A stretch of 15,654 nt of DNA from a virus (lineage: Duplodnaviria > Heunggongvirae > Uroviricota > Caudoviricetes): the IMG/VR virus record IMGVR_UViG_2585427782_000009; one strand, written 5' to 3'. A program made the translations under genes and the position numbers. Below are positions 1 through 15,654 of this stretch, piece by piece (positions within the stretch are counted from its first letter, which is position 1; every line of letters begins with the position of its first letter). A model generated the notes under the pieces. The model saw only the letters and a list, made by a program, of their open reading frames with translations, did no database searches and was not told the DNA's origin.

Positions 1-1362
1 ATGTTTAAACCGGAACTCCTTTCCCCGGCGGGAACGCTGAAAAATATGCGTTACGCTTTCGCTTATGGCGCAGATGCTGTTTATGCGGGCCAGCCGCGTT
101 ACTCCCTGCGTGTGCGCAACAACGAATTCAACCACGAAAATCTTCAGCTCGGCATCAATGAAGCCCACGCGCTGGGGAAAAAGTTTTATGTCGTGGTCAA
201 CATTGCACCGCACAACGCCAAGCTGAAAACCTTTATCCGTGACCTGAAACCGGTGGTGGAAATGGGGCCGGATGCGCTGATTATGTCCGATCCAGGGCTG
301 ATTATGCTGGTGCGTGAGCACTTCCCTGAAATGCCGATCCACCTCTCGGTGCAGGCTAACGCCGTAAACTGGGCGACGGTGAAATTCTGGCAGCAAATGG
401 GCCTGACCCGCGTGATCCTCTCTCGCGAGCTGTCGCTGGAAGAGATTGAAGAGATCCGCAATCAGGTGCCGGATATGGAGATCGAGATCTTCGTTCACGG
501 CGCACTGTGCATGGCCTACTCCGGTCGCTGCCTGCTCTCTGGCTATATCAACAAGCGCGATCCGAACCAGGGTACCTGCACCAACGCCTGCCGCTGGGAG
601 TACAACGTCCAGGAAGGGAAAGAAGATGACGTTGGCAACATCGTACACAAGTACGAGCCGATTCCGGTGCAAAATGTTGAGCCGACGCTGGGTATCGGCG
701 CGCCAACCGACAAAGTGTTTATGATCGAAGAAGCCCAGCGTCCGGGCGAGTATATGACCGCGTTTGAAGATGAGCACGGCACTTACATCATGAACTCGAA
801 AGATCTGCGCGCCATCGCCCATGTAGAACGCCTGACCAAAATGGGCGTGCATTCGCTGAAAATCGAAGGCCGTACTAAATCTTTCTACTATTGCGCACGC
901 ACCGCACAGGTTTACCGTAAAGCTATCGATGACGCCGCTGCGGGCAAACCGTTCGATACCAGCCTGCTGGAAACTCTGGAAGGTCTGGCGCATCGTGGCT
1001 ATACCGAAGGTTTCCTGCGTCGTCATACTCACGACGATTATCAGAACTACGAATACGGTTATTCAGTTTCTGACCGCCAGCAGTTTGTTGGTGAGTTTAC
1101 CGGTGAGCGCAAGGGGGACCTCGCGGCGGTAGCGGTGAAAAATAAATTCTCCGTTGGCGACAGCCTTGAGCTGATGACGCCGCAAGGCAACATTAACTTT
1201 ACCCTTGAGCACATGGAAAACGCCAAAGGTGAAGCGATGCCGGTCGCACCAGGCGATGGTTATACTGTGTGGCTCCCGGTCCCGCAGGATCTTGAGCTCA
1301 ATTACGCTCTGCTGATGCGTAATTTCTCCGGGGAAACCACGCGTAACCCACACGGTAAGTGA
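1..1362 (+). CDS. yegQ: U32-family peptidase-like protein YegQ (tRNA hydroxylation factor TrhP)
   Basis: ATG-initiated 453-aa ORF whose translation (MFKPELLSPAGTLKNMRYAFAYGADAVYAGQPRY...) I recognise as E. coli YegQ, which is also 453 aa. Conserved Cys-rich segment (CMAYSGRCLLSGY...CTNAC) typical of U32 proteins. Not verified by search. Confidence 0.93.
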   Translation: MFKPELLSPAGTLKNMRYAFAYGADAVYAGQPRYSLRVRNNEFNHENLQLGINEAHALGKKFYVVVNIAPHNAKLKTFIRDLKPVVEMGPDALIMSDPGLIMLVREHFPEMPIHLSVQANAVNWATVKFWQQMGLTRVILSRELSLEEIEEIRNQVPDMEIEIFVHGALCMAYSGRCLLSGYINKRDPNQGTCTNACRWEYNVQEGKEDDVGNIVHKYEPIPVQNVEPTLGIGAPTDKVFMIEEAQRPGEYMTAFEDEHGTYIMNSKDLRAIAHVERLTKMGVHSLKIEGRTKSFYYCARTAQVYRKAIDDAAAGKPFDTSLLETLEGLAHRGYTEGFLRRHTHDDYQNYEYGYSVSDRQQFVGEFTGERKGDLAAVAVKNKFSVGDSLELMTPQGNINFTLEHMENAKGEAMPVAPGDGYTVWLPVPQDLELNYALLMRNFSGETTRNPHGK

Positions 1363-1446
1363 TTAATTTCGATTATTTTTCCCGGATGGAAAATTCTTAG
1401 AAACCGATCACATACAGCTGCATTTATTAAGGTTATCATCCGTTTC

Positions 1447-1533
1447 GCTGAAAAACATAACCCATAAAATGCTAGCTGTACCAGGAACCACCTCCTTAGC
1501 CTGTGTAATCTCCCTTACACGGGCTTATTTTTT
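1447..1533 (+). ncRNA. cyaR: CyaR (RyeE) Hfq-dependent small RNA
   Basis: Sequence GCTGAAAAACATAACCCATAAAATGCTAGCTGTACCAGGAACCACCTCCTTAGCCTGTGTAATCTCCCTTACACGGGCTTATTTTTT matches my memory of E. coli cyaR, including the terminal hairpin (GCCTGTGTAA / TTACACGGGC) and U-tract. It lies directly downstream of yegQ as in K-12. Ends are approximate. Confidence 0.85.
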
Positions 1534-1534
1534 A
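1507..1534. repeat. attL core: 28-bp direct repeat (aatctcccttacacgggcttatttttta) shared with attR; overlaps the cyaR 3' end
   Basis: The same 28 bp occur at about 15137-15164. The two copies bracket a block of P2-like genes with int next to the right copy and ogr next to the left copy, which is the P2 prophage arrangement. Confidence 0.8.
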
Positions 1535-1597
1535 CGTACAACAAATTGAAATAAAAGGATTTATTTCTGGTCACGTCCACACATTGACCACATCGAC

Positions 1598-1624
1598 AAA
1601 AAAAGCCCCTCGACTGAGGGGCTT
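1598..1624 (-). terminator. Rho-independent terminator downstream of ogr
   Basis: On the minus strand, a GC-rich hairpin (GCCCCTCAGTCGAGGGGC) is followed by a run of 7 T, immediately 3' of the ogr stop codon. Confidence 0.6.
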
Positions 1625-1635
1625 TCTGTTTGTAA

Positions 1636-1854
1636 TTACATCCACATAATTTGCTGCCCTGACGGCAACGGGTGCGGCCTCACGGCGTGGACTTCTCCCG
1701 GCTTCACGATGTATCGCTGTACCGACTCATAAGTGATGAACGTGGCGCTGCAATTCACGTTCTGGCACTGGTGATAACGCTCTTTTGTCGTGTCAGTGAT
1801 ATAGCGGCTTGTACGCGCATGTGCGGCATGCTGGCATAAAGGACAATGAAACAT
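1636..1854 (-). CDS. ogr: Ogr, late-gene transcriptional activator (C4 zinc finger)
   Basis: The 72-aa translation MFHCPLCQHAAHARTSRYITDTTKERYHQCQNVNCSATFITYESVQRYIVKPGEVHAVRPHPLPSGQQIMWM matches my memory of P2 Ogr and E. coli OgrK. ATG at 1854 is preceded by a GGAAGAGGTG ribosome-binding site. The 93-aa track ORF is an upstream extension that I do not accept. Confidence 0.92.
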   Translation of the reverse strand: MFHCPLCQHAAHARTSRYITDTTKERYHQCQNVNCSATFITYESVQRYIVKPGEVHAVRPHPLPSGQQIMWM

Positions 1855-1935
1855 CGCGAGCACCTCTTCCGGTTTTGTTGATGGTGCCATTTTAGTTAAT
1901 TTATCCTTATAAAACAAACAGATAAAATAAAAACA

Positions 1936-2388
1936 TTACTCATCATCTTCTGTTTCGTACTCCACATCAGAAAGCCTGACCTCAAGCTCTAAGGACGTCG
2001 TGAAGCCGCTATTATTCAGAAAATGTGTCACCTTAGTGATTGTCCAGTCCTGCTCGTCTATGACGCGCTTAAAGCCTGACACTCTGACCGGTGTTTCCGT
2101 GTAAATATCAGCACGACCAGTGGCAAGGCTGATGGAGAACTCCGCAACGCCCCGTTGCAGTTTATCCCACTTCGCCTGAGCGGCGCGCATGGCCTGTGCT
2201 TTCGTGGCATATACCGTAGTCAGGGCAAAAACGTTGTCAGCTTCACCGGCCATGTATTCACCTTCGCGCGCTTCCGGTACTTTTGGCGCTTTCTTCTGCC
2301 TGACCGGTTTCGCTTTCGGGTGCTCCAGTGCGCGCAGGTGTTTTTCTTTCTTTTTGCGTTTCAGTTTTACCTTCTGCTTTTGCGGCTT
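1936..2388 (-). pseudogene. 3' fragment of tail gene D (gpD C-terminal region, 5' end deleted); comparable to K-12 yegZ
   Basis: The frame is open from 2388 down to the stop at 1936 with no credible start or RBS at its 5' end. It sits immediately upstream of ogr as D does in P2, and its translation ends ...EVRLSDVEYETEDDE. Assignment to D is from gene order and the K-12 ogrK/yegZ analogy; I cannot recall the P2 D sequence to confirm. Confidence 0.55.
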
Positions 2389-2861
2389 TCAGGGCTTAAT
2401 TTGAAGCGGTTCAGAGGGTTGTGTTTTGCCGTGCGGCAGAATTCCAGGTATTCCGTGCCGAGGCTTGCCGGGTCATCGGTGACGGCCAGCCCCACCAGAT
2501 AACATTTGCCGGTATTGGCAAAGTTCGGCTGAATTTCCATTGAGGTATAGACCTTCTGCGCGGCCTTGTTCATCGCGATAAGGTCATCGGTCGGGGTGAT
2601 TTTCGCAAACAGCGCCCATTTGCCTTTCAGCGCCGAATCATCGTCAATCTTTTCGGCCTTCAGTTCGACCACATCGCCATAACGCTTAAAAATACCGTCA
2701 GGCAGGATGCCGCGCAGATGTTCCAGGTTAATGCGGCAACCATAGACACGCGGGTCAAAGGTTTCGGCCATTTCCTGAATATCCTGCGCACTGATGACAC
2801 GCCCGTCACAGGTGTCACCCTCAACGCCGATACGAAAGAATTTTGAGACTTTTTTTGCCAT
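2367..2861 (-). pseudogene. Truncated capsid scaffold/protease gene O (N-terminal about 160 aa, then frameshifted into D-derived sequence)
   Basis: ATG at 2861 with an AGGA ribosome-binding site. Translation MAKKVSKFFRIGVEGDTCDGRVISAQDIQEMAETFDPRVYGCRINLEHLRG... matches my memory of the P2 gpO N-terminus (P2 gpO is about 284 aa). Here the frame ends after ...NRFKLSPE-SRKSRR, inside the D-derived segment. Confidence 0.75.
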
Positions 2862-3034
2862 TGTCAGGAGTCCTGAATAGTGATTAGAGGAGTCACATGT
2901 CGGCATCAGTTTCCCGACGATGCGCATCCTCCGCCATCAGTCCCGGATGGCTTATCACTGACACAACAGCACCTTAGCGAATCGCGGGGCGCGACTCAGT
3001 AGCCTTGCCGTGTATTCATCACGGCGAGGTATTC
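2862..3034. promoter_or_regulatory. Divergent intergenic region between O and P (expected position of the Ogr-dependent late promoters PO and PP)
   Basis: By position only: in P2 the divergent late promoters lie between O and P. I could not find a clean TGT-N12-ACA Ogr-site consensus by eye, so this call is positional. Confidence 0.35.
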
Positions 3035-4807
3035 ATGACCATCACCACAGACACCACTCTTTTACACGACCCGCGTCGTCAGGCGGCGCTGCTGTACTGG
3101 CAGGGATTTTCCGTGCCGCAGATTGCCGCCATGTTGCAGATGAAACGCCCGACGGTGCAGAGCTGGAAACAGCGCGACGGCTGGGACAGCGTTGCCCCCA
3201 TCAGCCGTGTCGAAATGAGTCTGGAAGCGCGGCTGACCCAGCTCATCATCAAACCGCAGAAAACCGGCGGTGACTTCAAGGAAATTGACCTGCTCGGACG
3301 CCAGATTGAACGACTGGCACGGGTCAACCGTTACAGTCAGACCGGCAACGAGGCAGACCTTAATCCGAACGTCGCTAACCGCAACAAAGGCGGGCGTCGC
3401 AAACCGAAAAAGAATTTTTTCAGTGACGAGGCCATCGAAAAGCTGGAGCAGATTTTCTTTGAGCAGTCTTTCGAATATCAGTTGCACTGGTATCGCGCCG
3501 GGCTTGAGCACCGCATCCGCGATATCCTGAAATCCCGCCAGATTGGCGCGACGTTTTATTTTTCCCGCGAGGCGCTGCTGCGCGCCCTAAAAACCGGTCA
3601 TAACCAGATTTTTCTGTCGGCCAGTAAAACGCAGGCGTATGTGTTCCGCGAATACATCATCGCCTTTGCCCGGCTGGTTGACGTTGACCTGACCGGTGAC
3701 CCGATTGTCCTGGGCAATAACGGCGCAAAACTGATTTTTCTCGGCACCAACTCCAACACCGCGCAGAGCCATAACGGCGACCTGTACGTCGACGAGATTT
3801 TCTGGATCCCGAATTTTCAGGTACTGCGTAAGGTGGCATCAGGTATGGCCTCACAGAGTCACCTGCGTTCGACCTATTTCTCCACCCCGTCCACACTGGC
3901 GCACGACGCCTACCCGTTCTGGTCGGGTGAACTGTTCAACCGGGGACGCGCCAGCGCCGCCGAACGCGTGGAAATCGACGTCAGTCATAACGCCCTTGCC
4001 GGTGGGCTTCTCTGTGCAGACGGCCAGTGGCGGCAGATTGTCACCATTGAGGACGCGCTGAAAGGCGGCTGCACGCTGTTCGACATTGAGCAGCTCAAAC
4101 GTGAAAACAGCGCCGACGATTTTAAAAACCTGTTCATGTGTGAATTTGTTGACGACAAGGCGTCGGTGTTCCCGTTCGAGGAGCTGCAACGCTGCATGGT
4201 CGACACGCTGGAAGAATGGGAAGACTATGCGCCGTTTGCCGCGAATCCGTTCGGCTCCCGCCCGGTATGGATTGGTTACGACCCGTCACACCGTGGCGAC
4301 AGCGCCGGATGCGTGGTACTGGCACCGCCGGTGGTGGCCGGTGGCAAATTCAGAATACTTGAGCGTCACCAGTGGAAAGGCATGGACTTTGCCACTCAGG
4401 CGGAATCCATCCGCAAACTCACCGAAAAATACAACGTCGAATACATCGGTATTGATGCCACCGGCCTCGGTGTCGGCGTGTTCCAGCTCGTGCGCTCGTT
4501 CTATCCCGCCGCGCGCGATATCCGCTACACACCGGAAATGAAAACCGCAATGGTGCTCAAGGCAAAAGACGTCATCCGCCGTGGCTGTCTGGAATATGAC
4601 GTCAGCGCCACCGACATCACCAGCTCGTTTATGGCTATCCGCAAGACCATGACCAGCAGCGGACGCAGCGCCACCTATGAGGCCAGCCGCAGCGAGGAAG
4701 CCAGCCACGCCGACCTCGCCTGGGCGACCATGCACGCCCTGTTAAATGAGCCACTCACCGCCGGTATCAGCACCCCGCTGACATCCACCATTCTGGAGTT
4801 TTACTGA
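3035..4807 (+). CDS. P: Terminase large (ATPase) subunit gpP
   Basis: 590-aa product from the ATG at 3035 (GAGG ribosome-binding site 6 nt upstream), beginning MTITTDTTLLHDPRRQAALLYWQGFSVPQIAAMLQ..., which matches my memory of P2 gpP in sequence and length. Divergent from O and followed by Q, as in P2. The track ORF starts at an upstream TTG (3005). Confidence 0.9.
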   Translation: MTITTDTTLLHDPRRQAALLYWQGFSVPQIAAMLQMKRPTVQSWKQRDGWDSVAPISRVEMSLEARLTQLIIKPQKTGGDFKEIDLLGRQIERLARVNRYSQTGNEADLNPNVANRNKGGRRKPKKNFFSDEAIEKLEQIFFEQSFEYQLHWYRAGLEHRIRDILKSRQIGATFYFSREALLRALKTGHNQIFLSASKTQAYVFREYIIAFARLVDVDLTGDPIVLGNNGAKLIFLGTNSNTAQSHNGDLYVDEIFWIPNFQVLRKVASGMASQSHLRSTYFSTPSTLAHDAYPFWSGELFNRGRASAAERVEIDVSHNALAGGLLCADGQWRQIVTIEDALKGGCTLFDIEQLKRENSADDFKNLFMCEFVDDKASVFPFEELQRCMVDTLEEWEDYAPFAANPFGSRPVWIGYDPSHRGDSAGCVVLAPPVVAGGKFRILERHQWKGMDFATQAESIRKLTEKYNVEYIGIDATGLGVGVFQLVRSFYPAARDIRYTPEMKTAMVLKAKDVIRRGCLEYDVSATDITSSFMAIRKTMTSSGRSATYEASRSEEASHADLAWATMHALLNEPLTAGISTPLTSTILEFY

Positions 4808-5841
4808 TGAGCAAGAAAAAAGGGAAAACACCGCAACCTGCGGCCAAAAAAATGACCGCCAGCGCCCCGAAAATGGAAGCATTCACCTTTGGCGAGCCGG
4901 TACCGGTACTCGACCGCCGTGACATTCTGGATTACGTCGAGTGCATCAGTAACGGCAGATGGTATGAACCACCGGTCAGCTTTACCGGTCTGGCAAAAAG
5001 CCTGCGTGCTGCCGTGCATCACAGCTCACCGATTTACGTCAAACGTAATATTCTGGCCTCAACGTTTATCCCGCACCCGTGGCTTTCCCAGCAGGATTTC
5101 AGTCGCTTTGTGCTGGATTTTCTGGTGTTCGGTAATGCGTTTCTGGAAAAGCGCTACAGCACTACCGGTAAGGTCATCAGACTGGAAACCTCACCGGCAA
5201 AATATACCCGCCGTGGCGTGGAGGAGGATGTTTACTGGTGGGTGCCATCCTTCAACGAGCCGACACCTTTCGCGCCCGGCTCCGTGTTTCACCTGCTGGA
5301 GCCGGATATCAATCAGGAGCTGTACGGCCTGCCGGAATATCTCAGCGCCCTTAACTCTGCCTGGCTGAATGAGTCGGCCACGCTGTTCCGCCGCAAGTAT
5401 TACGAAAACGGCGCACATGCCGGATACATCATGTACGTCACCGATGCCGTGCAGGATCGCAACGATATCGAAATGCTTCGCGAAAACATGGTGAAGTCGA
5501 AAGGCCGCAACAACTTTAAAAACCTGTTTCTCTACGCCCCACAGGGAAAAGCCGACGGTATTAAAATTATCCCGCTCAGTGAAGTGGCAACGAAGGACGA
5601 TTTTTTTAATATCAAAAAAGCCAGCGCCGCAGACCTGCTGGACGCGCACCGCATCCCTTTTCAGTTGATGGGCGGCAAGCCGGAGAACGTCGGGTCGCTG
5701 GGTGATATTGAGAAAGTGGCAAAGGTCTTTGTCCGCAATGAGCTTATCCCGTTACAGGACAGGATCCGCGAGATAAACGGCTGGCTCGGTCAGGAGGTCA
5801 TCCGCTTTAAAAACTACTCACTGGACACTGACAACGGCTGA
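4807..5841 (+). CDS. Q: Portal (capsid vertex) protein gpQ
   Basis: 344-aa ORF (MSKKKGKTPQPAAKKMTASAPKMEAFTFGEPVPVLDRRD...) with the same length as P2 gpQ. Its start overlaps the P stop (TGATG), indicating translational coupling. Lies next to cos as in P2. Confidence 0.9.
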   Translation: MSKKKGKTPQPAAKKMTASAPKMEAFTFGEPVPVLDRRDILDYVECISNGRWYEPPVSFTGLAKSLRAAVHHSSPIYVKRNILASTFIPHPWLSQQDFSRFVLDFLVFGNAFLEKRYSTTGKVIRLETSPAKYTRRGVEEDVYWWVPSFNEPTPFAPGSVFHLLEPDINQELYGLPEYLSALNSAWLNESATLFRRKYYENGAHAGYIMYVTDAVQDRNDIEMLRENMVKSKGRNNFKNLFLYAPQGKADGIKIIPLSEVATKDDFFNIKKASAADLLDAHRIPFQLMGGKPENVGSLGDIEKVAKVFVRNELIPLQDRIREINGWLGQEVIRFKNYSLDTDNG

Positions 5842-5846
5842 ACATC

Positions 5847-5868
5847 GCCGCCTGCGGGCGGCTTTTTT
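5847..5868 (+). terminator. Rho-independent terminator after Q
   Basis: GCCGCCTGCGGGCGGC hairpin followed by TTTTTT, 6 nt after the Q stop codon. Confidence 0.6.
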
Positions 5869-6010
5869 ACACCCCGTCATCACGCCCTCACACGCTCACC
5901 ACCGCACAAAACAGCCCGCATACACGCCAACGCCCCGGCGAACAATCTAAACGCCATCACGACGCGCTCAGACGCTGAAAAAATAAAATCAGCACCACCG
6001 CCAGCGCGCA

Positions 6011-6029
6011 GTGCTTTCCCCGCCTCGCC
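6011..6029. other. cos site: 19-nt cohesive-end sequence of P2/186/P4 type
   Basis: GTGCTTTCCCCGCCTCGCC is the reverse complement of GGCGAGGCGGGGAAAGCAC, which I recall as the P2 cohesive end. It is located just beyond Q, as in P2. Confidence 0.8.
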
Positions 6030-6157
6030 CGCCCGCTTCGTGGGGTGGTTTTCATGCAGTTGCATGAACTAGCCGAATCCGCGCCAGTATTGACATTGAC
6101 GTTTCGATATGGATTTGGCGTAAGCATGCAAATTAGGGCACTATCATGCTATTTTCT

Positions 6158-9100
6158 TTACAATGTTGGAGCATCAATCAGACACTTATCTCGCTCCACC
6201 TTTAGTGCCAAAAAACTCAGTCTGATTGATAAATATTTCATATCATCACCTCCTCCACTGATATCAAACTGTTGCTCATTCAACTCCTTAGCATATTCTA
6301 ACTCTTTATCATAAGATGAGGTTACACGCCAAATTACAGAACCACGCTTAAATAAGTAGTATAAGCCATTAACATCCCGATACGCTTTCATAAGCTGCCA
6401 TAACACATCGGTACATCTGTTAAAAAGCTCATCTAATCGCTGCAAGAACAAATAATCATAAACGGCCTTTAATTCCCTCACCCCCTCCGCATCAATTTTT
6501 TCAAACTCTCCGCAACGTACCAACTCTTCATACTTAACAAGTAACGCCCTGGCCTTAGTATACACTCCCCCTTCATTTTTTATGGCATTATCAATATATT
6601 TGAAAGATGAACCAGAAAACAAATAATGAAGTTTAATGCTAATATTATTAGCCAGCGTGTTATACCCAGCAGCTCGGGACTTTTTCTCGAGAGAAATAAG
6701 CTTATTAAGCCTTTTACCATGAGACAATTCGTCAGCCAAATGAACTTCAGCATTGATATAATAACTAGAAGACTTTGGAGCTATCTTTTTTAATTTTATT
6801 GCGTATTTTCGTGCTTTTTCATCATTATATTCAGAGCATGCCATCATAATATTATCAAGCATTTTAAAATAATATTCCTTTTGACAAAACTCTTTTGCCT
6901 CGAACTCATCACTTAAAGGCTCAATAAATTCAACACTTTGTTCAACCTCATCAATCATTCTTAAACTTGTAGCCAAAAAATACGCAGCCCTAAATTTATC
7001 AAGAATATCCAAATGAGAAATATTAGAATAAAGCATCCGAGAAAATGCGACGAGTTCTTTATAGTAACATGCACTCTTTAAAAAGATGCAATATCCTATA
7101 GAAACATGTATTAATGATTTAACTTCTCGATCATAATGATTAATATCTATTAATGAAAAGTATGAACTAATAGCTGAATGGACATTTCCAGGATAAAACT
7201 CCGGGCTTTCAAGCATCATCTTCACTGTAGGAGAGACTCTCACTTTCCCTGACATCCAATCGCTACCGATACAAAGTCCTAGGGATTTTTTTACAAGTTC
7301 ATACCGTTGGTTAGGATCCATACCCTGCTTTACAAAATCACTAACAACTGGTGATATCCTTAACATTTTATAATTATCCTTTGTAATTGTATAAATCAGA
7401 CCATATCTTTCTAGTTTTGCGAAATCATCAAAATGAAAATCATACGATGAATAATAAGAGCGAATATTTGTCAATTTCTCCCCATATTCAAGCATAGAGA
7501 AAATGCATAGTAATGAATATAGTTTTCTATTATCACTTCTAATCTCGTTTATTTGCTTGGATATGTAGTGTGGAATGTCCGTATTTGTTCCCTCTGCCGA
7601 AACAACAATATTTCCTGCATCAAGGACTTCATCAAATGACATTAACTCATAATACTCTTTAACCTTATCTAATTTTAAAGGTATTCCATTTGTTATTTCA
7701 TACAACCTATCAAGTTTCTCTCTTTTTATTTCAGTAATATCAGTGCCAACTTTAATATACTCCTTTATATCATCTAAAGATAAAGGCTGTAATTCCACTA
7801 TACCAGAGCATATCCCGTTACATGTCGCTGATACAAAAATAACTTTCACACCAGAACTAAGATCTGATGATAATTTCGCAATCTCAGAAAAGAAAGCTTT
7901 AGTTGATGGAGGAAGTCTGGCTATGTTATCAAGAATTAAAATCCGCTTTCCTAATCCATTATTAGATATGAAGGTTGCAATATCGATACCGATATCCTGT
8001 TTTATTTTAACTTCAATATCACGAGATTCAGTCAATCCATTGACATCACTATAATAACATGTAAAATCATAAAATTCATCATGAATAAAAGAATATAAAA
8101 AACCTGCTTTTCCGTATCCCCAACCAGAAACAAGCTCAAAATGATTGTTATTATTTAAATAATCAGTGGCTTTTTTTTGCTCTACTAATCTAATTATATC
8201 ATGCGCAGGCTCAACTGAAAGGTTATAGGGTCTCAGCGAAATAACTATGCTTTCTGTTATCGGCTGTAATCCAGTTTTTTTTACAACAAACTTACTTAAT
8301 TGTTTTTTTTTACTAATCTCAGCCAAAGCATCCTCAAAGTATGTATTACAGTCAACCCCAACATATCCTTGAAAACGAGCATTAACAAGCGCTGGTTGAA
8401 TAATTTCAATCAATCGTGAATGTTCTTTACTCACATCATCAATTGAGTTTTTATAAAAACCCCATCTAACATTATAACTTGGCTGAAACTCATGGACGAT
8501 GTTTCTTAACGCCTGTAGAAAAACATCATCCCAACCTGCATATCCAATAACATATAATTTACTTGTATCCAATATATTTTTTATTGACAACTCAATTTTT
8601 TTCCTCAATGAAGAAAGCTGAGTTTGAGTATGCATAGTATCTCCATCCCAAACTCCATGTAAATGCACTACGGGAATGGATTCGCCTGAATAGCTGGTAA
8701 CGCTACCAATTGGTTGATCTACAATAAGATTATGTACATTACAATTTCTATTTACTCTAAACAATGCCTCTTCAATCAATGGATCAAAATTTGTTGTAAG
8801 TATGCATTTTACTTTAATGCTAGTTTCTGAAATAAGCCTTGAAAAATCATCAAGTGATTTAGTAATTAACCATTTGTCGCCGCTCCTTGCATTATTCATT
8901 GCAAGAGCCATTATTTCTTTAACTTCATCTTGATCACCTACCTTCAAAAGGTATTCGAAACTTTTTTGATATTTATCAGTTTCACTTAAACCGATTATGT
9001 TACTTTCAAAGCCATCATAAATATCTAAATCAATCATATATTGCCGCAGAATATCATTCATCCCTGAAACGCCCGGTACCCCATTCCCCTCCGGCGAGCA

Positions 9101-9193
9101 ACTCACGGCTGACCCCAGAAGAAAACTAACGTCTTTACCTTTCCGAATATCCAATACCAAAGACTTTACAAATTCAGTATAAGAATTAAACAT
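6158..9193 (-). CDS. SIR2-like (SIR2_2-type) NAD+-hydrolase domain protein of about 1,011 aa with a long C-terminal region; candidate single-gene anti-phage defence protein carried as prophage hotspot cargo
   Basis: Long minus-strand ORF (track 6158..9286, TTG start). I place the start at the ATG at 9193 (MFNSYTEFVKSL...), which has an AAGGGA ribosome-binding site about 8 nt upstream. N-terminal motifs FLLGSAVS, ILTTNFDPLIEEAL, VVHLHGV and YVIGYAGWDD resemble the conserved blocks of bacterial defence sirtuins (ThsA, DSR1, DSR2). The gene is visibly AT-rich compared with flanking phage genes and has no partner gene in the hotspot. Confidence 0.8.
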   Translation of the reverse strand: MFNSYTEFVKSLVLDIRKGKDVSFLLGSAVSCSPEGNGVPGVSGMNDILRQYMIDLDIYDGFESNIIGLSETDKYQKSFEYLLKVGDQDEVKEIMALAMNNARSGDKWLITKSLDDFSRLISETSIKVKCILTTNFDPLIEEALFRVNRNCNVHNLIVDQPIGSVTSYSGESIPVVHLHGVWDGDTMHTQTQLSSLRKKIELSIKNILDTSKLYVIGYAGWDDVFLQALRNIVHEFQPSYNVRWGFYKNSIDDVSKEHSRLIEIIQPALVNARFQGYVGVDCNTYFEDALAEISKKKQLSKFVVKKTGLQPITESIVISLRPYNLSVEPAHDIIRLVEQKKATDYLNNNNHFELVSGWGYGKAGFLYSFIHDEFYDFTCYYSDVNGLTESRDIEVKIKQDIGIDIATFISNNGLGKRILILDNIARLPPSTKAFFSEIAKLSSDLSSGVKVIFVSATCNGICSGIVELQPLSLDDIKEYIKVGTDITEIKREKLDRLYEITNGIPLKLDKVKEYYELMSFDEVLDAGNIVVSAEGTNTDIPHYISKQINEIRSDNRKLYSLLCIFSMLEYGEKLTNIRSYYSSYDFHFDDFAKLERYGLIYTITKDNYKMLRISPVVSDFVKQGMDPNQRYELVKKSLGLCIGSDWMSGKVRVSPTVKMMLESPEFYPGNVHSAISSYFSLIDINHYDREVKSLIHVSIGYCIFLKSACYYKELVAFSRMLYSNISHLDILDKFRAAYFLATSLRMIDEVEQSVEFIEPLSDEFEAKEFCQKEYYFKMLDNIMMACSEYNDEKARKYAIKLKKIAPKSSSYYINAEVHLADELSHGKRLNKLISLEKKSRAAGYNTLANNISIKLHYLFSGSSFKYIDNAIKNEGGVYTKARALLVKYEELVRCGEFEKIDAEGVRELKAVYDYLFLQRLDELFNRCTDVLWQLMKAYRDVNGLYYLFKRGSVIWRVTSSYDKELEYAKELNEQQFDISGGGDDMKYLSIRLSFLALKVERDKCLIDAPTL

Positions 9194-9375
9194 TAAGCAA
9201 TCCCTTTCGTTATATGACGAAACTACAAGCAGAGAATTTCTGATAATTTTTACATTATGAAACCAAAGCATCAACACATAATACAAAACAAAAATAACTT
9301 ATTGATTTGTATATAATTTCCATTATAAGTCTACACGTAATGCTACAGGAGCATTTTGAAGACCACTCCCCGCTT

Positions 9376-11478
9376 TTATATAAAATCACCAATCATGAGT
9401 AAACATGAATCTAGGGAGCGAGCTGTGTCTCGCAGATAATTTTGTGTCCTTAGACCGTGTTTTAGTGCACCTCTGAGCGCCCTCACGACCTCCGGGTCAT
9501 TCCATTCGATAACACCGTCATCAACCAGATTAAGCACTGCTGCGGCGTGCTCAGAAGGCGTGGGAGCCGGTAACGAAGTATCACCACCGGTGAGCTTTCC
9601 ACAGTTATTGACAGGACTCCGAGGCGCGGCGATGCCGCTTTTTAAAGTCAAAGGCTCAACGACCGGAACTTTCGGCACAATGCGCCAATCCGTGGTTCTG
9701 GTGATATGAATATGACGCGCGCCGAGATGCGGTGCGTAAATGCCGACCACTCTCTCGACTTCTTCCTCGTACTCGTTAACGTCATCCGACGGGCTACGGG
9801 CGACTCTGACAGTCTGACAATCGCGCGGAACATTTGCCCCACCCTGCGCGCTGATATACAACGCAAAATCACCACTGTCTGCGGCGGCGCGTGCAGCCTC
9901 GACGCGCTCGTCAAACTCATCAGCAATGCTGACGCCGCGCGGCAATTTGCGTAGTTCACGGTAAGCCCCCATTGTCGGCAGGCCAACCGTTTTAAATTGC
10001 GGGATGCGCCACGTTGACGCCCATGCGGTAACAGCCGCTGCAGTGTCTTTCAGCGGCCTGCCGGTATCGTTATCGAGCTGACCATCCAGTGCATAGCCGT
10101 CGATGTTTTTTGAAATGTATTTCGCGATATATCCCGCAGCACCGCCCCGGTTAAGGTGTTTTGCCTGAAAACGGTTTCGCGCGGCTCCTCTTTCGTCGCC
10201 ATCCTCTTTGAGCGCATAGCGACGCATGATTTCGATAATCTGGTTGCGCTGGCGTGGATTACAAAAAAGCATCATATGCCAGTGCGGCGTTCCGTCGTGG
10301 TGTGGCTCGACGACACGCAAACCGTAGACCTGTAAATCATTATCCTTGAATGCCGTGCGCATCAGGCTCCAGATACGGCAGAGATAACGCTGCGCATCCT
10401 TTGGATTAAATGCCTCATCGTTCCAGCCGTGATTAAGCTGAACGGTTTTACTTTCGCCTTTTCTGACCTGACGTGTCGGGTGATACTTTGACGGCGCGGT
10501 CAGCGTGATAAACATCCCCACATCACCCTCTGCGGCAGCGTAACGCTCAATACCGGCGATGGTGTTCATCAGCTCCATCCGGCGAATTTCTGGATTAGAA
10601 ATACTGCCCATCACCTTACTGATAAGGTCGATGCGCTCGCCGGTTTCCCTGTTTTCGAGGTCACACGATTTAAGAAATTCCAGATTTGCCTGGCGGCGCG
10701 CACGCACATCACGAATGGCATGTTTACTGGCATAAGGAGAACGGTCTTTATTGACCTCCCCGACAGCAATCAGTAACGCCTCATGCCAGCGCATACGCTG
10801 GCCTTTAAGCTGATGAGTCCACCACTCATCGTTAAACAGGCGGGCAATGGCAGAATATGCCTGCCTCGTGGTCATCTGCCCTTTACGGTATTTTTTCCAG
10901 TAAAGCGGGGAAATATTGAAAGCACGTGCAGCGCCAGCAACATGACCATAGAGGTGAGCCTGCGCCTCATCCGTAAACAGCGATTCTTTTTCGCCATGTG
11001 CATCAACCCAGGCATCGCAGAGTTCCTCATACATCATGAAAAGCTGCGATGAGATACGGGCAGCAAACTTTTTCAGCTCCTTGTCATTCATCCCCGGCAG
11101 GCGCGCATACTGGTCGCGCTCTGCCAGAAACAGCAACGACGCGTCGGTGTTCATTTCATGGCGCTGATTCACACGCTCAATGCGCGGCCATAAACGACGC
11201 TGAAAAGTGGATGTGAGGAAATAAAACCCGTGCACCGGGCTTTTATTGCGCCGGATGTAGTCATAGCGTGAAGTAAACAGCGAGCGCAAAAAGTAAGGCA
11301 GACGGTTAATCGTGGATAAAACCCCTTGCACCTGACGCATCTCGTCACGTGTAAGGGGTCTTTCGCGCCCGACAGCCTCGCGTGGCGCGTTCCATGCATA
11401 AGCACCGGTAAACGCCTTACCGGTGCCTGCGGCAAATGCTGACGGAGGGACAAAACGCCCGGAGGCTTTAACGGCCAT
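9376..11478 (-). CDS. A: Replication initiation protein gpA (rolling-circle initiator)
   Basis: 700-aa product from the first ATG (11478; MAVKASGRFVPPSAFAAGTGK...), matching my memory of the P2 gpA N-terminus. The track ORF begins at an upstream TTG (11520). Last gene of the early operon, as in P2. Confidence 0.9.
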   Translation of the reverse strand: MAVKASGRFVPPSAFAAGTGKAFTGAYAWNAPREAVGRERPLTRDEMRQVQGVLSTINRLPYFLRSLFTSRYDYIRRNKSPVHGFYFLTSTFQRRLWPRIERVNQRHEMNTDASLLFLAERDQYARLPGMNDKELKKFAARISSQLFMMYEELCDAWVDAHGEKESLFTDEAQAHLYGHVAGAARAFNISPLYWKKYRKGQMTTRQAYSAIARLFNDEWWTHQLKGQRMRWHEALLIAVGEVNKDRSPYASKHAIRDVRARRQANLEFLKSCDLENRETGERIDLISKVMGSISNPEIRRMELMNTIAGIERYAAAEGDVGMFITLTAPSKYHPTRQVRKGESKTVQLNHGWNDEAFNPKDAQRYLCRIWSLMRTAFKDNDLQVYGLRVVEPHHDGTPHWHMMLFCNPRQRNQIIEIMRRYALKEDGDERGAARNRFQAKHLNRGGAAGYIAKYISKNIDGYALDGQLDNDTGRPLKDTAAAVTAWASTWRIPQFKTVGLPTMGAYRELRKLPRGVSIADEFDERVEAARAAADSGDFALYISAQGGANVPRDCQTVRVARSPSDDVNEYEEEVERVVGIYAPHLGARHIHITRTTDWRIVPKVPVVEPLTLKSGIAAPRSPVNNCGKLTGGDTSLPAPTPSEHAAAVLNLVDDGVIEWNDPEVVRALRGALKHGLRTQNYLRDTARSLDSCLLMIGDFI

Positions 11479-11743
11479 ATGAGCCAAAAGCCTCTGAACA
11501 ACGCCTGCTGAGTTGCTCAACCTGCGCGTTTAAATCAGCAAAAGACTTTGCGCTTCCGGTCAGAATATCGTGATGCATCAGGCCGGAAACGAGCTGGCTT
11601 AATTTCGGATAATAACCAACCACCGCCAGCCATTCCTGACCGGCGTTTTTACCGCTTTCCGCTCTCTTTTTCTCGTGGAGAATAAACTGAAAGCTGTCAC
11701 TGGTAACGACATAACGTTCGCCAATTTCAATACGAATACTCAT
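11468..11743 (-). CDS. Hypothetical early-operon protein (positional equivalent of P2 orf83)
   Basis: 91-aa ATG-initiated ORF whose start overlaps the upstream stop (ATGA) and whose end overlaps the A start. The orf numbering is by position only. Confidence 0.65.
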   Translation of the reverse strand: MSIRIEIGERYVVTSDSFQFILHEKKRAESGKNAGQEWLAVVGYYPKLSQLVSGLMHHDILTGSAKSFADLNAQVEQLSRRCSEAFGSYGR

Positions 11744-11964
11744 GCCGTTCTCCGGTAATGTTTGTTTTTTGCTTCAAAGACTGACTGGCAGGAAACACAA
11801 CGCGTGGCTGACGGATAAGCCGCACGACGGGCAGCAGGTATTGGCGCGTCACACTCTTCGCAAACCAGCGCAGAAGCACCGCAATGTTTTACCCTTGCCG
11901 CGTTAATCTGGCGCTCCAGTAATTCAGCCTGTTGTTCCTGAATGAAATCTACGTTGTCCGGCAT
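11740..11964 (-). CDS. TraR/DksA-family C4 zinc-finger protein (positional equivalent of P2 orf82)
   Basis: 74-aa ORF with a CxxC...CxxC arrangement (CEECDAPIP...CVSCQSVFE), characteristic of phage and plasmid TraR-like zinc fingers. Start overlaps the upstream stop. Confidence 0.7.
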   Translation of the reverse strand: MPDNVDFIQEQQAELLERQINAARVKHCGASALVCEECDAPIPAARRAAYPSATRCVSCQSVFEAKNKHYRRTA

Positions 11965-12266
11965 TACCAGTTCCTTTTGTCGTTCAGTTTCTTAAATTCA
12001 TCAGCGCAATAGCTGACGATTTCTGTCGTTAATTTTGTCAGTTCATCCACGGAGGAAATTTGCTTGTGGAATACAGCGCGTTTAACAAGTAAATTGACCA
12101 CATCAGACAGGAGGTTTAATTCATTCTGATAAATCGCGATAACAGATTCAGTTATGTCGCGTTTTTCTTTATCAAGACAAAGTTGAATAAGAGACAAATC
12201 ACCATTTCCCATAACGGCGATTTTTAAGGCGTTATTCAGTAATACAACTGAATGAGAACAGGACAT
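11964..12266 (-). CDS. Hypothetical early-operon protein (positional equivalent of P2 orf81)
   Basis: 100-aa product from the ATG at 12266, with a GGAGG ribosome-binding site 9 nt upstream. ATGA overlap with the preceding ORF. The track start is a TTG one codon upstream. Confidence 0.6.
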   Translation of the reverse strand: MSCSHSVVLLNNALKIAVMGNGDLSLIQLCLDKEKRDITESVIAIYQNELNLLSDVVNLLVKRAVFHKQISSVDELTKLTTEIVSYCADEFKKLNDKRNW

Positions 12267-12490
12267 CAAAGCACCTCCCCGCGAGACAATCCGATATTGT
12301 GAAATTTTTCCGACTCCTGACTGAGCAGCTCGACTATCTCCACGCGGGATAACTCCGCCTTTGTGATGTGGCGAATCATGGCGTCAAGATGAGAAGAAAA
12401 GCGCGTCGCAGCGTCGGCCTGTGCTTCGGTTCTGGCCTGTTGCAGCAGTAATGCGTATTTACCGCACTGATTTTCAGAAACTGTATGCAT
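12266..12490 (-). CDS. Hypothetical early-operon protein (positional equivalent of P2 orf80)
   Basis: 74-aa product from the ATG at 12490 (MHTVSENQ...), with a GGAGAAAG ribosome-binding site. The track ORF extends further upstream from a non-ATG start. Confidence 0.55.
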
Positions 12491-12553
12491 GACTTTCTCC
12501 AGGCAAAAAGAAACCCCGCACAATTAAGTGCGTTAAAAACTCTGGTTAATTAT

Positions 12554-13054
12554 TTAATGCAGATATTGCTCTGGTTTTACCGACGTCAGAATTGTCGGTG
12601 CATACTCAAACAGGCTGAATAATTCACGTAATGCACGGAATAAAGCATCACGCCAGTAACATGATTCTTCATTAATTCGCCAGTATGGCTGGTTAAATTC
12701 TTTTTCTGTCAGTCGTGCGTGCATAAATAAAGTACGGCGCTGACTGACGGTTAAAAAACTAATATATGCATACTCACTTGCGCCAACCTGACGGCGTTTT
12801 GAGAATGCCCCACGCAGTTCATCAATTGCACAAACCAGCCGTTCACGTTCGACGTCGTTCATTTCTTCAAAACGCATCGTTGCGTGACGTTGTTTTAACT
12901 GCGCATGAAAGCAAACTGTTAGCCGTTCGCGCTCCATCATCTGATTATAATAATCACATGTATCCTGCCAGCGAGGGACGGCAAGATGCTTACCAATTAT
13001 CCGGCGCATAGCTGCTGGCTGTTTTTCGACGAGATTGAGCGTCATCACTGTCAT
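12554..13054 (-). CDS. B: Replication protein gpB (helicase-loader-like)
   Basis: 166-aa ORF, the same length as P2 gpB, at the P2 position between cox/orf78 and the small ORFs. Start overlaps the upstream stop (ATGA). Confidence 0.85.
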   Translation of the reverse strand: MTVMTLNLVEKQPAAMRRIIGKHLAVPRWQDTCDYYNQMMERERLTVCFHAQLKQRHATMRFEEMNDVERERLVCAIDELRGAFSKRRQVGASEYAYISFLTVSQRRTLFMHARLTEKEFNQPYWRINEESCYWRDALFRALRELFSLFEYAPTILTSVKPEQYLH

Positions 13055-13221
13055 TTCCAGACCCTCCGGCTTTTCAGAAAGGTCAGAGCCTTTTTTAACG
13101 GACTCTGTTTTTTGGTGCGGATAATGATTCCCTTACGCCCCTTACCGTGGGTGATGGTGAAGTCAATCGCCCTGGGGCTTTCGTTACGCAATAACTGAGC
13201 AATACAACGAGGCTCATTCAT
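13051..13221 (-). CDS. Hypothetical small protein (positional equivalent of P2 orf78)
   Basis: 56-aa product from the ATG at 13221, which has a perfect AAGGAG ribosome-binding site 7 nt upstream. The track ORF begins at an upstream GTG (13245) overlapping the cox stop. Confidence 0.55.
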   Translation of the reverse strand: MNEPRCIAQLLRNESPRAIDFTITHGKGRKGIIIRTKKQSPLKKALTFLKSRRVWK

Positions 13222-13231
13222 ACGGTTCTCC

Positions 13232-13507
13232 TTAACGTGGTTCACCGAGACCTAACCACATCAACCAGCCGTCACGAATCTCTTTAGGACGGCTTTCATA
13301 AGCCAGTTTTAGTCCGTTATTCCATGCCGGAAGGTATACCCAATATTCACCAGCACGCCCCGATACTGACTGAGGGTCAGTAATCTCAATAACTGGTAAT
13401 TTCCCTTTCTCAATCATGCCCCTTACAGCTCTTGGAGTTTTACCAATGAGTTTTGCAAACTCCTGATAAGGCACGGCATCAGTCACGCTTACAAGCTGTC
13501 TATTCAT
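13232..13507 (-). CDS. cox: Cox (excision directionality factor and repressor of the lysogenic promoter)
   Basis: 91-aa ORF, the same length as P2 Cox, first gene of the early operon and divergent from C. The C-terminal portion (...GRAGEYWVYLPAWNNGLKLAYESRPKEIRDGWLMWLGLGEPR) matches my memory of P2 Cox. Confidence 0.85.
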   Translation of the reverse strand: MNRQLVSVTDAVPYQEFAKLIGKTPRAVRGMIEKGKLPVIEITDPQSVSGRAGEYWVYLPAWNNGLKLAYESRPKEIRDGWLMWLGLGEPR

Positions 13508-13532
13508 CTGCTACGATTCTCCCTTAGTGCTT

Positions 13533-13551
13533 CTAATGGCTCCTAATGGCT
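13533..13551. promoter_or_regulatory. Candidate immunity operator: two direct repeats CTAATGGCT spaced 10 bp apart in the cox-C intergenic switch region
   Basis: Read directly: CTAATGGCT at about 13533-13541 and 13543-13551. The P2 C repressor is known to bind direct repeats overlapping the early promoter. Functional assignment is an inference. Confidence 0.45.
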
Positions 13552-13628
13552 AATTATTGCCTAAAAGGATAACTCCAGAAGCACAACATTTCACACTATC
13601 AGCAAGAAATTACGCAATCGGAGTAATT

Positions 13629-13928
13629 ATGTCAATAGACGTTTCGGAGAAGTTGAAGCTAATCCGTGAATCTGAAAGGTTAAACCGTAAAGAATTCAGT
13701 GAATTAACTGGTGTAGCCTACAGCTCACTTTCGAGCTATGAGAGCCGGTCAAAAAACGCTGGAGTTGAAGCCATAATGAAGGTCTTACAACATCCTAGAT
13801 TTACTAAATATACTTTGTGGTTCATGACTGATCAGGTAGCTCCAGAAGCCGGGCAAATTGCGCCCGCTCTCGCACACTTTGGGCAAAACGAAACAACGTC
13901 GCCCCACTCCGGTCAAAAGACTGGTTAA
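13629..13928 (+). CDS. C: Immunity repressor C (P2 C family)
   Basis: 99-aa product from the ATG at 13629 (GGAG ribosome-binding site 7 nt upstream), the same length as P2 C. The C-terminal half (...FTKYTLWFMTDQVAPEAGQIAPALAHFGQNETTSPHSGQKTG) matches my memory of P2 C; the N-terminal half differs. The 123-aa track ORF starts at an upstream TTG. Confidence 0.85.
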   Translation: MSIDVSEKLKLIRESERLNRKEFSELTGVAYSSLSSYESRSKNAGVEAIMKVLQHPRFTKYTLWFMTDQVAPEAGQIAPALAHFGQNETTSPHSGQKTG

Positions 13929-14043
13929 CAATTTATCGTGAATATATTCATCACAAGTGCCTACTATTGGTGGCTAAATTTCAGCCACCACGAAAAAAGC
14001 GATTAGTAGTAGCAAAAAAAAGTACCACTCGGAGGGTTTTCTG

Positions 14044-15057
14044 ATGGCAATCAAAAAACTCGATGATGGTCGATATGAAGTGGACATCCGCCCTACTGGA
14101 CGTAACGGAAAACGCATCCGTAGGAAGTTTGATAAGAAAAGCGAAGCTGTCGCTTTCGAAAAATACACGTTGTACAACCACCACAATAAAGAATGGCTAT
14201 CAAAACCAACAGACAAACGACGTCTGTCGGAACTGACACAGATCTGGTGGGATTTAAAGGGTCAACACGAAGAGCATGGGAAATCTAATCTTGGAAAAAT
14301 TGAAATCTTCACAAAAATAACGAATGACCCATGCGCATTTCAAATCACGAAATCCCTTATCAGCCAGTACTGCGCCACCCGAAGAAGTCAGGGTATTAAA
14401 CCTTCGAGTATCAATCGTGATTTAACATGTATTAGCGGCATGTTTACAGCCCTGATTGAAGCGGAGTTATTCTTTGGTGAGCACCCTATCAGAGGGACAA
14501 AGAGGCTTAAGGAGGAAAAACCAGAAACAGGCTATCTCACACAGGAAGAAATTGCCTTACTGCTTGCAGCACTTGACGGCGACAATAAAAAGATTGCGAT
14601 TCTTTGCCTGAGTACAGGAGCACGTTGGGGAGAAGCAGCTCGTTTGAAAGCAGAAAATATCATCCATAACCGCGTCACGTTTGTTAAAACGAAAACAAAC
14701 AAACCACGCACCGTCCCGATTTCAGAGGCTGTTGCCAAAATGATCGCGGATAACAAACGAGGTTTTTTATTCCCTGATGCTGATTACCCTCGCTTCAGAC
14801 GAACAATGAAAGCAATAAAACCGGATTTGCCAATGGGGCAAGCCACACATGCACTAAGGCACAGCTTTGCCACTCATTTCATGATTAATGGAGGAAGTAT
14901 TATCACGCTACAACGGATACTAGGTCACACGCGGATTGAGCAAACTATGGTTTACGCTCATTTTGCGCCAGAGTACCTTCAGGACGCCATTTCTCTTAAT
15001 CCGCTAAGAGGTGGTACTGAGGCCGAGAGTGTCCACACAGTGTCCACAGTAGAGTAA
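14044..15057 (+). CDS. int: Tyrosine site-specific integrase (P2 Int family)
   Basis: 337-aa ORF (MAIKKLDDGRYEVDIRPTGRNGKRIRRKFDKKSEAVAFEKY...) with the same length as P2 Int. C-terminal catalytic-type residues are present (ARWGEA..., HALRHSFAT..., RILGHTRIEQTMVYAH). GGAGGG ribosome-binding site. The 3' end faces attR. Confidence 0.95.
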   Translation: MAIKKLDDGRYEVDIRPTGRNGKRIRRKFDKKSEAVAFEKYTLYNHHNKEWLSKPTDKRRLSELTQIWWDLKGQHEEHGKSNLGKIEIFTKITNDPCAFQITKSLISQYCATRRSQGIKPSSINRDLTCISGMFTALIEAELFFGEHPIRGTKRLKEEKPETGYLTQEEIALLLAALDGDNKKIAILCLSTGARWGEAARLKAENIIHNRVTFVKTKTNKPRTVPISEAVAKMIADNKRGFLFPDADYPRFRRTMKAIKPDLPMGQATHALRHSFATHFMINGGSIITLQRILGHTRIEQTMVYAHFAPEYLQDAISLNPLRGGTEAESVHTVSTVE

Positions 15058-15136
15058 CGTTTAAGGGCTTTCAGTGGTAATTTATGCCGCTCAAACCCGC
15101 ATTGTACCGTTGAAAGCCCCTACTGGTGACACCCTA

Positions 15137-15164
15137 AATCTCCCTTACACGGGCTTATTTTTTA
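15137..15164. repeat. attR core: second copy of the 28-bp direct repeat
   Basis: aatctcccttacacgggcttatttttta is identical to the copy at the cyaR 3' end. It is followed by ATGCATAAGCCC, which forms an inverted repeat with GGGCTTAT. Confidence 0.8.
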
Positions 15165-15321: not shown

Positions 15322-15639
15322 TCACTCTCCACATTTGAATGTCAGACGAGCGACACCATGTAATCCTACACCTTCTGTCTTCAGCTCAACTATTTGCATT
15401 TTTTTGCCCTGAGTAACACAGAAATGGGCTGCATCATTTTTTACTATATTTTCTGCACCAGATATTCTACCCCTGGCTAAAGAAGCTTCGGCTTCGGTGT
15501 AGTATTGGTTATCGAGTTTACGCTGAATATTACTTTTATATGCAAGGCCAAATTTACCGATACTTGTCTCATCATTATGCACAGCACAACCAGACATAAG
15601 AAAAACACTAATTAATGATATAGCAGCTATTTTATTCAC
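15322..15639 (-). CDS. yegR: Small lipoprotein YegR (uncharacterised)
   Basis: Signal peptide with a lipobox (AISLISVFLMSGC). The 105-aa product from the GTG at 15639 matches the length I recall for E. coli YegR. The track ORF runs to an ATG at the window edge (15654), so the true start is uncertain. Confidence 0.65.
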   Translation of the reverse strand: MNKIAAISLISVFLMSGCAVHNDETSIGKFGLAYKSNIQRKLDNQYYTEAEASLARGRISGAENIVKNDAAHFCVTQGKKMQIVELKTEGVGLHGVARLTFKCGE

Positions 15640-15654
15640 CTCACCTTCCCCCAT

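Follow-up and report, generated by a model that had tools for sequence, protein, structure and literature searches.

The attachment site at cyaR is listed among the integration sites of phage P2, and the same list already places there the 'ogr-D'' of E. coli K-12 and the defective P2*B of E. coli B (PMC3032704). Defective P2-like prophages commonly keep near-identical defence genes (bioRxiv 10.64898/2026.02.27.708500). Sp13, a P2-like prophage of O157:H7 Sakai, is without most morphogenetic genes, yet it is excised, amplified and packaged (PMC2669165).

We analysed a window of 15,654 nt, by which we mean the whole stretch of DNA under study. It is the yegQ–cyaR…yegR locus of E. coli 5-172-05_S4, with a P2-like prophage of 13.6 kb inside it. 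Over an 11-kb stretch the window is identical to NCBI contig JOQN01000001.1 (assembly GCA_000714105.1), and the contig that carries the window is 402 kb long, belongs to a draft assembly and has normal host flanks. The host features and attachment sites are listed below.

1..1362, plus strand: host gene yegQ/trhP, 3' part of the flank; 100% identity to the yegQ of many complete E. coli genomes
1445..1530, plus strand: CyaR (RyeE) sRNA gene; Rfam RF00112 at 100.7 bits, the gathering score being 47
1507..1534, no strand: att core at the ogr end (attR in P2 prophage terms); perfect 28-nt direct repeat with 15137-15164
15137..15164, no strand: att core at the int end (attL); perfect 28-nt direct repeat with 1507-1534
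15322..15654, minus strand: host gene yegR, flank; same position relative to int as the annotated yegR in FT130, UID2309220004 and STEC1588

Many E. coli chromosomes have a yegQ (trhP) region that is 100% identical to bases 1-1520, and the att core repeats are identical to the 27-nt P2 attP core. The CyaR gene has a terminator-like hairpin at 1498-1525. Its 3' end and this hairpin overlap the att core at 1507-1534, so that a phage-borne core rebuilds the 3' end of the sRNA upon integration.

Several features identify the element as a P2-like prophage: P2 gene order, with high nucleotide identity to P2 to the left and right of the joint described below, a tyrosine integrase, and a duplicated att core at a known P2 site. 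Its gene order, att core, cos and late promoter region, together with ogr, P, Q, int and its early operon, are the same as in P2 and in full-length prophages at the cyaR site (e.g. STEC1588), with identities of 97-100% at the DNA or protein level. Compared with P2, the window is without the capsid genes except Q, the small terminase gene M, and the lysis, tail and Z/fun genes; its C gene is of a different immunity type, and the old/tin/orf91 region is swapped for a SIR2 gene. The K-12 'ogr-D'' (ogrK/yegZ) and P2*B are likewise defective P2 derivatives at this chromosomal site. Judged by its name, the K-12 remnant consists of ogr and D' only, whereas the window holds 13.6 kb with both att cores, int, the early region, cos, Q and P. 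Sp13 resembles the element in being a P2-like prophage that misses most morphogenetic genes, but Sp13 carries a P4 epsilon-like gene, of which the window has none, and the mobility of Sp13 is experimental whereas the window is known from its sequence.

We compared the window with the P2 reference (NC_001895) by megablast and blastn, followed by base-by-base alignment. The blastn search returned five collinear blocks of 91.7-98.1% identity, which cover everything but the SIR2 cargo.

Window 1507-2388, P2 24382-23502: att core, ogr and the last 453 nt of D; 97.4% identity
Window 2384-6029, P2 3644-1: 5' part of O, the P-O intergenic region, P, Q and cosL; 97.5%, ungapped
Window 6011-6058, P2 33593-33546: right cos arm
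Window 9456-13485, P2 30056-26027: A to cox
Window 13799-15164, P2 25720-24355: 3' part of C, int and att

The original prediction had proposed a deletion joint near 2380-2400, between a truncated O and a 3' fragment of D. Both blastn and tblastn, together with the base-level alignment to P2, confirmed this joint, and we mapped it to three bases. The last base that matches O is 2387 (P2 3641) and the first that matches D is 2388 (P2 23502).

2386..2388, no strand: novel deletion joint, O nt 3641 to D nt 23502 in P2 numbering; mapped by alignment to P2, to STEC1588 and to two further D alleles
2367..2861, minus strand: O', truncated scaffold/protease gene, 164 aa; 98.7% identity to gpO 1-159 (tblastn)
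1936..2388, minus strand: D', 3' fragment of the tail gene D, codons 238-387 plus stop; matches P2 23502-23954 (blastn)

The joint has the form of a simple deletion: the O and D segments abut, each base at the joint could be assigned to O or to D, and the base-by-base alignment revealed no inserted or foreign sequence there. On the minus strand the sequence reads …AAGCCCTGAAA up to the joint and GCCGCAAAAGC… from the joint onwards. The deleted interval is 3642-23503 in P2 numbering (19,862 bp), and the equivalent interval in STEC1588 is 19,105 bp. The identity of both flanks to P2-type phages is 97-99.5% and extends as far as the joint itself. The protein and DNA matches that support the joint have E-values from 0 to 1e-97, and a chance match is therefore not in question.

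We also examined whether the breakpoints share short homology, as the original prediction had suggested. They do, to the extent of 2 nt (AA, at 2387-2388) and nothing longer. Megablast matches to D extended to 2397 or 2407 in some phages and genomes, which raised the possibility of an O/D repeat of 10-20 nt. Aligning two such D alleles ruled out longer microhomology, as there were scattered chance matches only and the shared stretch was again 2 nt. No long O/D repeat was found at the breakpoints in P2, STEC1588, 118UI or Z1323HEC0300, where only a patchy CCC.GAA..CC is shared, and the joint and its surroundings contain no IS sequence that would point to an IS-mediated deletion. The microhomology in the real parent could differ by 1-2 bases, the nearest full-length relative with the same cargo being ~98% identical.

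The translations show what the joint did to the two genes. O had been described as intact for about 160 codons before running into a different frame; the truncation stands, and its extent is 158 O codons followed by six out-of-frame codons (SRKSRR) and a stop at 2367-2369. An O' codon begins at 2387 and a D codon at 2388; because the O and D frames differ, O' stops after the six extra codons, and D' has lost its start. The predicted overlap of the two frames at 2367-2388 was confirmed by translation. O' matches the Pfam family Phage_GPO at profile positions 1-153 of 268 only, the N-terminal part, and a protein identical to O' has the accessions KEL31496/KEL41563/KEL64270. The derivation of the 1936-2388 frame from D also holds, since it corresponds to gpD 238-387; by tblastn it is 96.8% identical to gpD 232-387, and it matches only the C-terminal part of Pfam Phage_GPD. 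The D' frame is open over 2388..1936 and its first ATG is at 2253, its own start being absent at the joint. An in-frame O–D fusion protein is rejected, as the frames differ and O' ends at 2367-2369. The "fusing" of O to D in the earlier description is thus correct for the DNA and not for any joined protein; as read from the frames, the fusion is one of DNA and predicted transcript only.

Everything that P2 encodes between O and D was expected to be absent, and a tblastn search with all 41 P2 proteins bore this out. Nothing was found for N, M, L, X, Y, K, lysA, lysB, R, S, orf30, V, W, J, I, H, G, Z/fun, FI, FII, E, T or U, nor for orf91, tin and old; lysC is also among the genes gone from the O–D interval. 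None of the late operons (O, V, F) is complete, O and D being truncated, and the element is therefore a defective derivative and not a functional phage. In gpO, residues 1-141 form the protease domain and residues 195-284 the scaffold domain (PMC7552001). Given established P2 biology, capsids should no longer be possible with N and the O scaffold domain gone, cos cutting should no longer be possible with M gone, and the element should be unable to make tails or lyse its host. We infer from the absent genes, in agreement with the original prediction, that the element cannot form particles on its own; it would be a locked-in defective prophage. Immunity conferred by C may persist, and the SIR2 gene may still be expressed. 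Where Ogr is supplied, the promoter P_P would be expected to drive P and Q, and P_O to drive an O'-D'-ogr transcript as far as the ogr terminator; on the domain limits of gpO (PMC7552001), O' would hold the protease domain and nothing else.

The genes and sites on which these expectations depend, and the rest of the retained backbone, are as follows.

1636..1854, minus strand: ogr, late-gene activator; 72/72 aa identical to P2 Ogr (tblastn)
2862..3034, no strand: divergent late promoters P_O/P_P; 173/173 identical to P2 2994-3166
3035..4807, plus strand: P, terminase large subunit, full length; 590/590 aa aligned, 99.8% (tblastn)
4807..5841, plus strand: Q, portal protein, full length; 343/344 aa aligned, 99.1% (tblastn)
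6011..6029, no strand: cos, 19-nt cohesive-end sequence; equals the P2 cos 19-mer, with P2-like flanks on both sides
6158..9193, minus strand: SIR2-domain cargo gene, 1011 aa, at the position of the P2 old/tin hotspot; Pfam SIR2_2 at residues 130-238, within a recognisable SIR2_2 domain of about residues 111-306
9376..11478, minus strand: A', replication initiator; residues 1-680 of 761 at 97.9% (tblastn), then 20 unrelated residues
11468..13507, minus strand: early operon of orf83, orf82, orf81, orf80, B, orf78 and cox, full length; 83.5-100% (tblastn)
13629..13928, plus strand: C, immunity repressor, full length; 64.6% identity to P2 C (tblastn), with weak matches to HTH-type families
14044..15057, plus strand: int, integrase, full length; 337/337 aa aligned, 99.7% (tblastn)

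The ogr terminator hairpin at 1602-1625 is conserved with P2, and the Ogr activator site at 2941-2971 is identical to the annotated P2 site at 31/31 positions. The original prediction took int, C, cox, B, ogr, P, Q and cos to be intact, and each of them proved full length by tblastn or blastn against P2. The same claim made for gene A failed: only residues 1-680 of its 761 match P2. The immunity region (13232-13928) is unlike that of P2, with C at 64.6% and Cox at 83.5% against 99-100% for int, B and ogr, and P2 DNA homology is interrupted at 13486-13798. To judge from this divergence, the element is probably heteroimmune to P2.

A' has lost the last 81 codons of A and gained 20 unrelated ones, with the boundary at ~9439-9456, at the edge of the cargo. 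The DNA homology of A ends at P2 30056, where a low-GC insert starts. The equivalent of the ori nick site lies at ~9620, in an ori region that is 60/61 identical to P2. The same shortened A is found with the same SIR2 cargo in STEC1588, a prophage otherwise endowed with the full late gene set, in which NCBI PGAP flags A as a pseudogene 'missing C-terminus'. Exact copies of the 700-aa A' protein are encoded on 58 contigs. Because A' occurs on these contigs, STEC1588 included, the shortening of A is older than the O–D deletion. Among deposited phage genomes, none has this boundary between A' and SIR2. The A protein of phage 186 is naturally 694 aa long and diverges from P2 A across the same C-terminal region that A' lost, which shows that this region is not conserved in the family.

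No P2 DNA homology was detected by blastn across the insert (6059-9455), whose GC content is 32-38% compared with ~52-57% in the adjoining late and replication genes. PADLOC matched the SIR2 domain alone (Aga SIR2 / PDC-S65), and the NCBIfam and PDB sequence searches returned no match for the 1011-aa protein. A role in defence is likely for this gene, whose product may be a single-gene SIR2 defence protein.

We consider that the joint very probably arose by a single illegitimate deletion within a resident full-length P2-like prophage. A full-length P2-like (Peduovirus) prophage would first have integrated at the cyaR/yegQ–yegR attachment site. One intramolecular deletion of ~19-20 kb would then have broken O at codon 158/159 and D at codon 237/238, by illegitimate recombination at 2 nt of microhomology and with neither an IS nor a repeat involved. 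The 2 shared nucleotides, the lack of an IS and the lack of an O/D repeat in four alleles together point to illegitimate, microhomology-level recombination. A K-12-type remnant followed by integration of a new phage was rejected on geometry, as ogr-D' would then lie outside int, beside yegR, and not against O'.

We surveyed genome collections for the same deletion. A 191-nt junction query had no place with ≥80% coverage in 5,426 complete E. coli genomes, 1,601 of which match one side or the other of the query. The exact junction 33-mer was absent from the GTDB representatives (one genome per species), from IMG/VR and from the JGI metagenomes. An exact-protein look-up found O' only in three separately deposited sibling isolates and in Logan; two of the three sibling genomes are named, E. 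coli 5-172-05_S4_C2 and C3. The survey proposed earlier thus recovered the deletion in related isolates, namely these three siblings, and in none of the complete E. coli genomes, GTDB, IMG/VR or JGI metagenome sets. Since the junction occurs in the siblings and nowhere else searched, the deletion looks private to one clone.

Other remnants at the cyaR site have different structures. We describe three of them, with breakpoints in brackets.

FT130, cyaR site: D'(23803)–M'(5953-5588)–P'(2117)
UID2309220004, cyaR site: ogr'(24161)–M'(5364) plus an internal P deletion
FG92-1, cyaR site: D'(23765)–T'…FI'(20964-18220)–P'(2627)

These are independent of one another, with two late-region deletions each and breakpoints unlike those of the window. 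All three kept int, C, cox, B, A, hotspot cargo (reverse transcriptase, or SIR2 plus ATPase), cos, Q and all or part of ogr, and lost the lysis genes and most morphogenesis genes. P is damaged in 3/3, whereas it is intact in the window. The deletion in the window was probably a recent, clone-specific event, because P, Q and the late promoters show no damage and the joint was seen in no more than three colonies, all of one sample.

The case is one of ordinary strain-private prophage decay, one more example of a kind already described. It is improbable that the 13.6 kb element instead persists as a helper-dependent, cos-bearing mini-P2, which a P2-like phage that shares the cell or superinfects it could excise, replicate and package, and which would serve the SIR2 gene as a satellite-like vehicle. 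In favour of this, the element retains int and cox, the two att cores, cos, ogr, P, Q, the ori and the conserved core of A, and the excision, amplification and packaging of Sp13 provide a precedent (PMC2669165). Against this, the chromosomal site is identical to that of full-length relatives, A is altered at its C-terminus, and two genes are cut out of frame, as an accident would give. P is also destroyed in the other remnants at the site, and its retention here therefore looks like recency and not selection. When we looked for the hallmarks of a satellite (P4-like, PICI or cfPICI), the ORF-bearing DNA contained no genes for helper exploitation or capsid redirection and no replicon distinct from that of a helper, all of the DNA being P2 backbone or the single SIR2 gene. 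Nor is there a sign of spread over lineages, sites or virions, as the joint is confined to three sibling isolates and is absent from everything else searched, viral contigs included.

We give an equally low probability to the functional consequences that could follow, namely that the element works as a helper-dependent mini-P2, that O' induced by Ogr poisons the capsid assembly of an invader, or both. If this were so, Ogr arriving with a heteroimmune P2-like infection would activate P_O/P_P. Excision would use the element's own int/cox, and replication would start from its A'/ori. A 13.6 kb cos circle, perhaps as a dimer, would be packaged in helper capsids and would spread the SIR2 cargo. O', with a protease domain and without a scaffold domain, could poison the capsids of the invader.

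A very improbable origin for the joint is recombination between two P2-like genomes, for instance a resident prophage and a superinfecting phage or second prophage. The nearest database relatives on the O/P side are indeed not those on the D/ogr side: the best matches are fiAA91-ss and a Peduovirus P2 record (99.5%) for O, and P24C9, 10W and 11W (98.3-98.9%) for D. Such mosaicism is, however, normal in P2-like phages. With 2 nt shared the event would still be illegitimate, its product and consequences would be unchanged, and nothing in the window requires a second partner. An assembly artefact, which the draft status of the source assembly might suggest, is extremely improbable given that three sibling genomes, deposited separately, and Logan all contain the exact 164-aa O', that O and D have no common repeat able to mislead an assembler, and that the 402 kb contig has normal host flanks.

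Read as a single deletion in a resident prophage, the window captures an exactly mapped and apparently very recent first step in the decay of a P2 prophage, in which one deletion occurred and the remaining late genes are undamaged. Together with the other remnants at the cyaR site, it fits the described pattern in which late (lethal) genes are lost and the early region and hotspot cargo are kept. Beyond correct annotation the case is of little importance. For annotation, the 164-aa 'GPO family' and 105-aa 'GPD' products should be treated as fragments and the prophage scored as defective. For work on defence hotspots, it is the 1011-aa SIR2 protein beside cos that deserves more interest in this window.

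Two further open reading frames were noted. A 115-aa ORF on the plus strand (2155-2502) crosses the deletion joint, and a 61-aa ORF on the minus strand (5880-6065), which is a called gene in the public record, spans cos; neither has a family match on record. Both are probably spurious, since they lack such a match and lie antisense to or across known P2 features.
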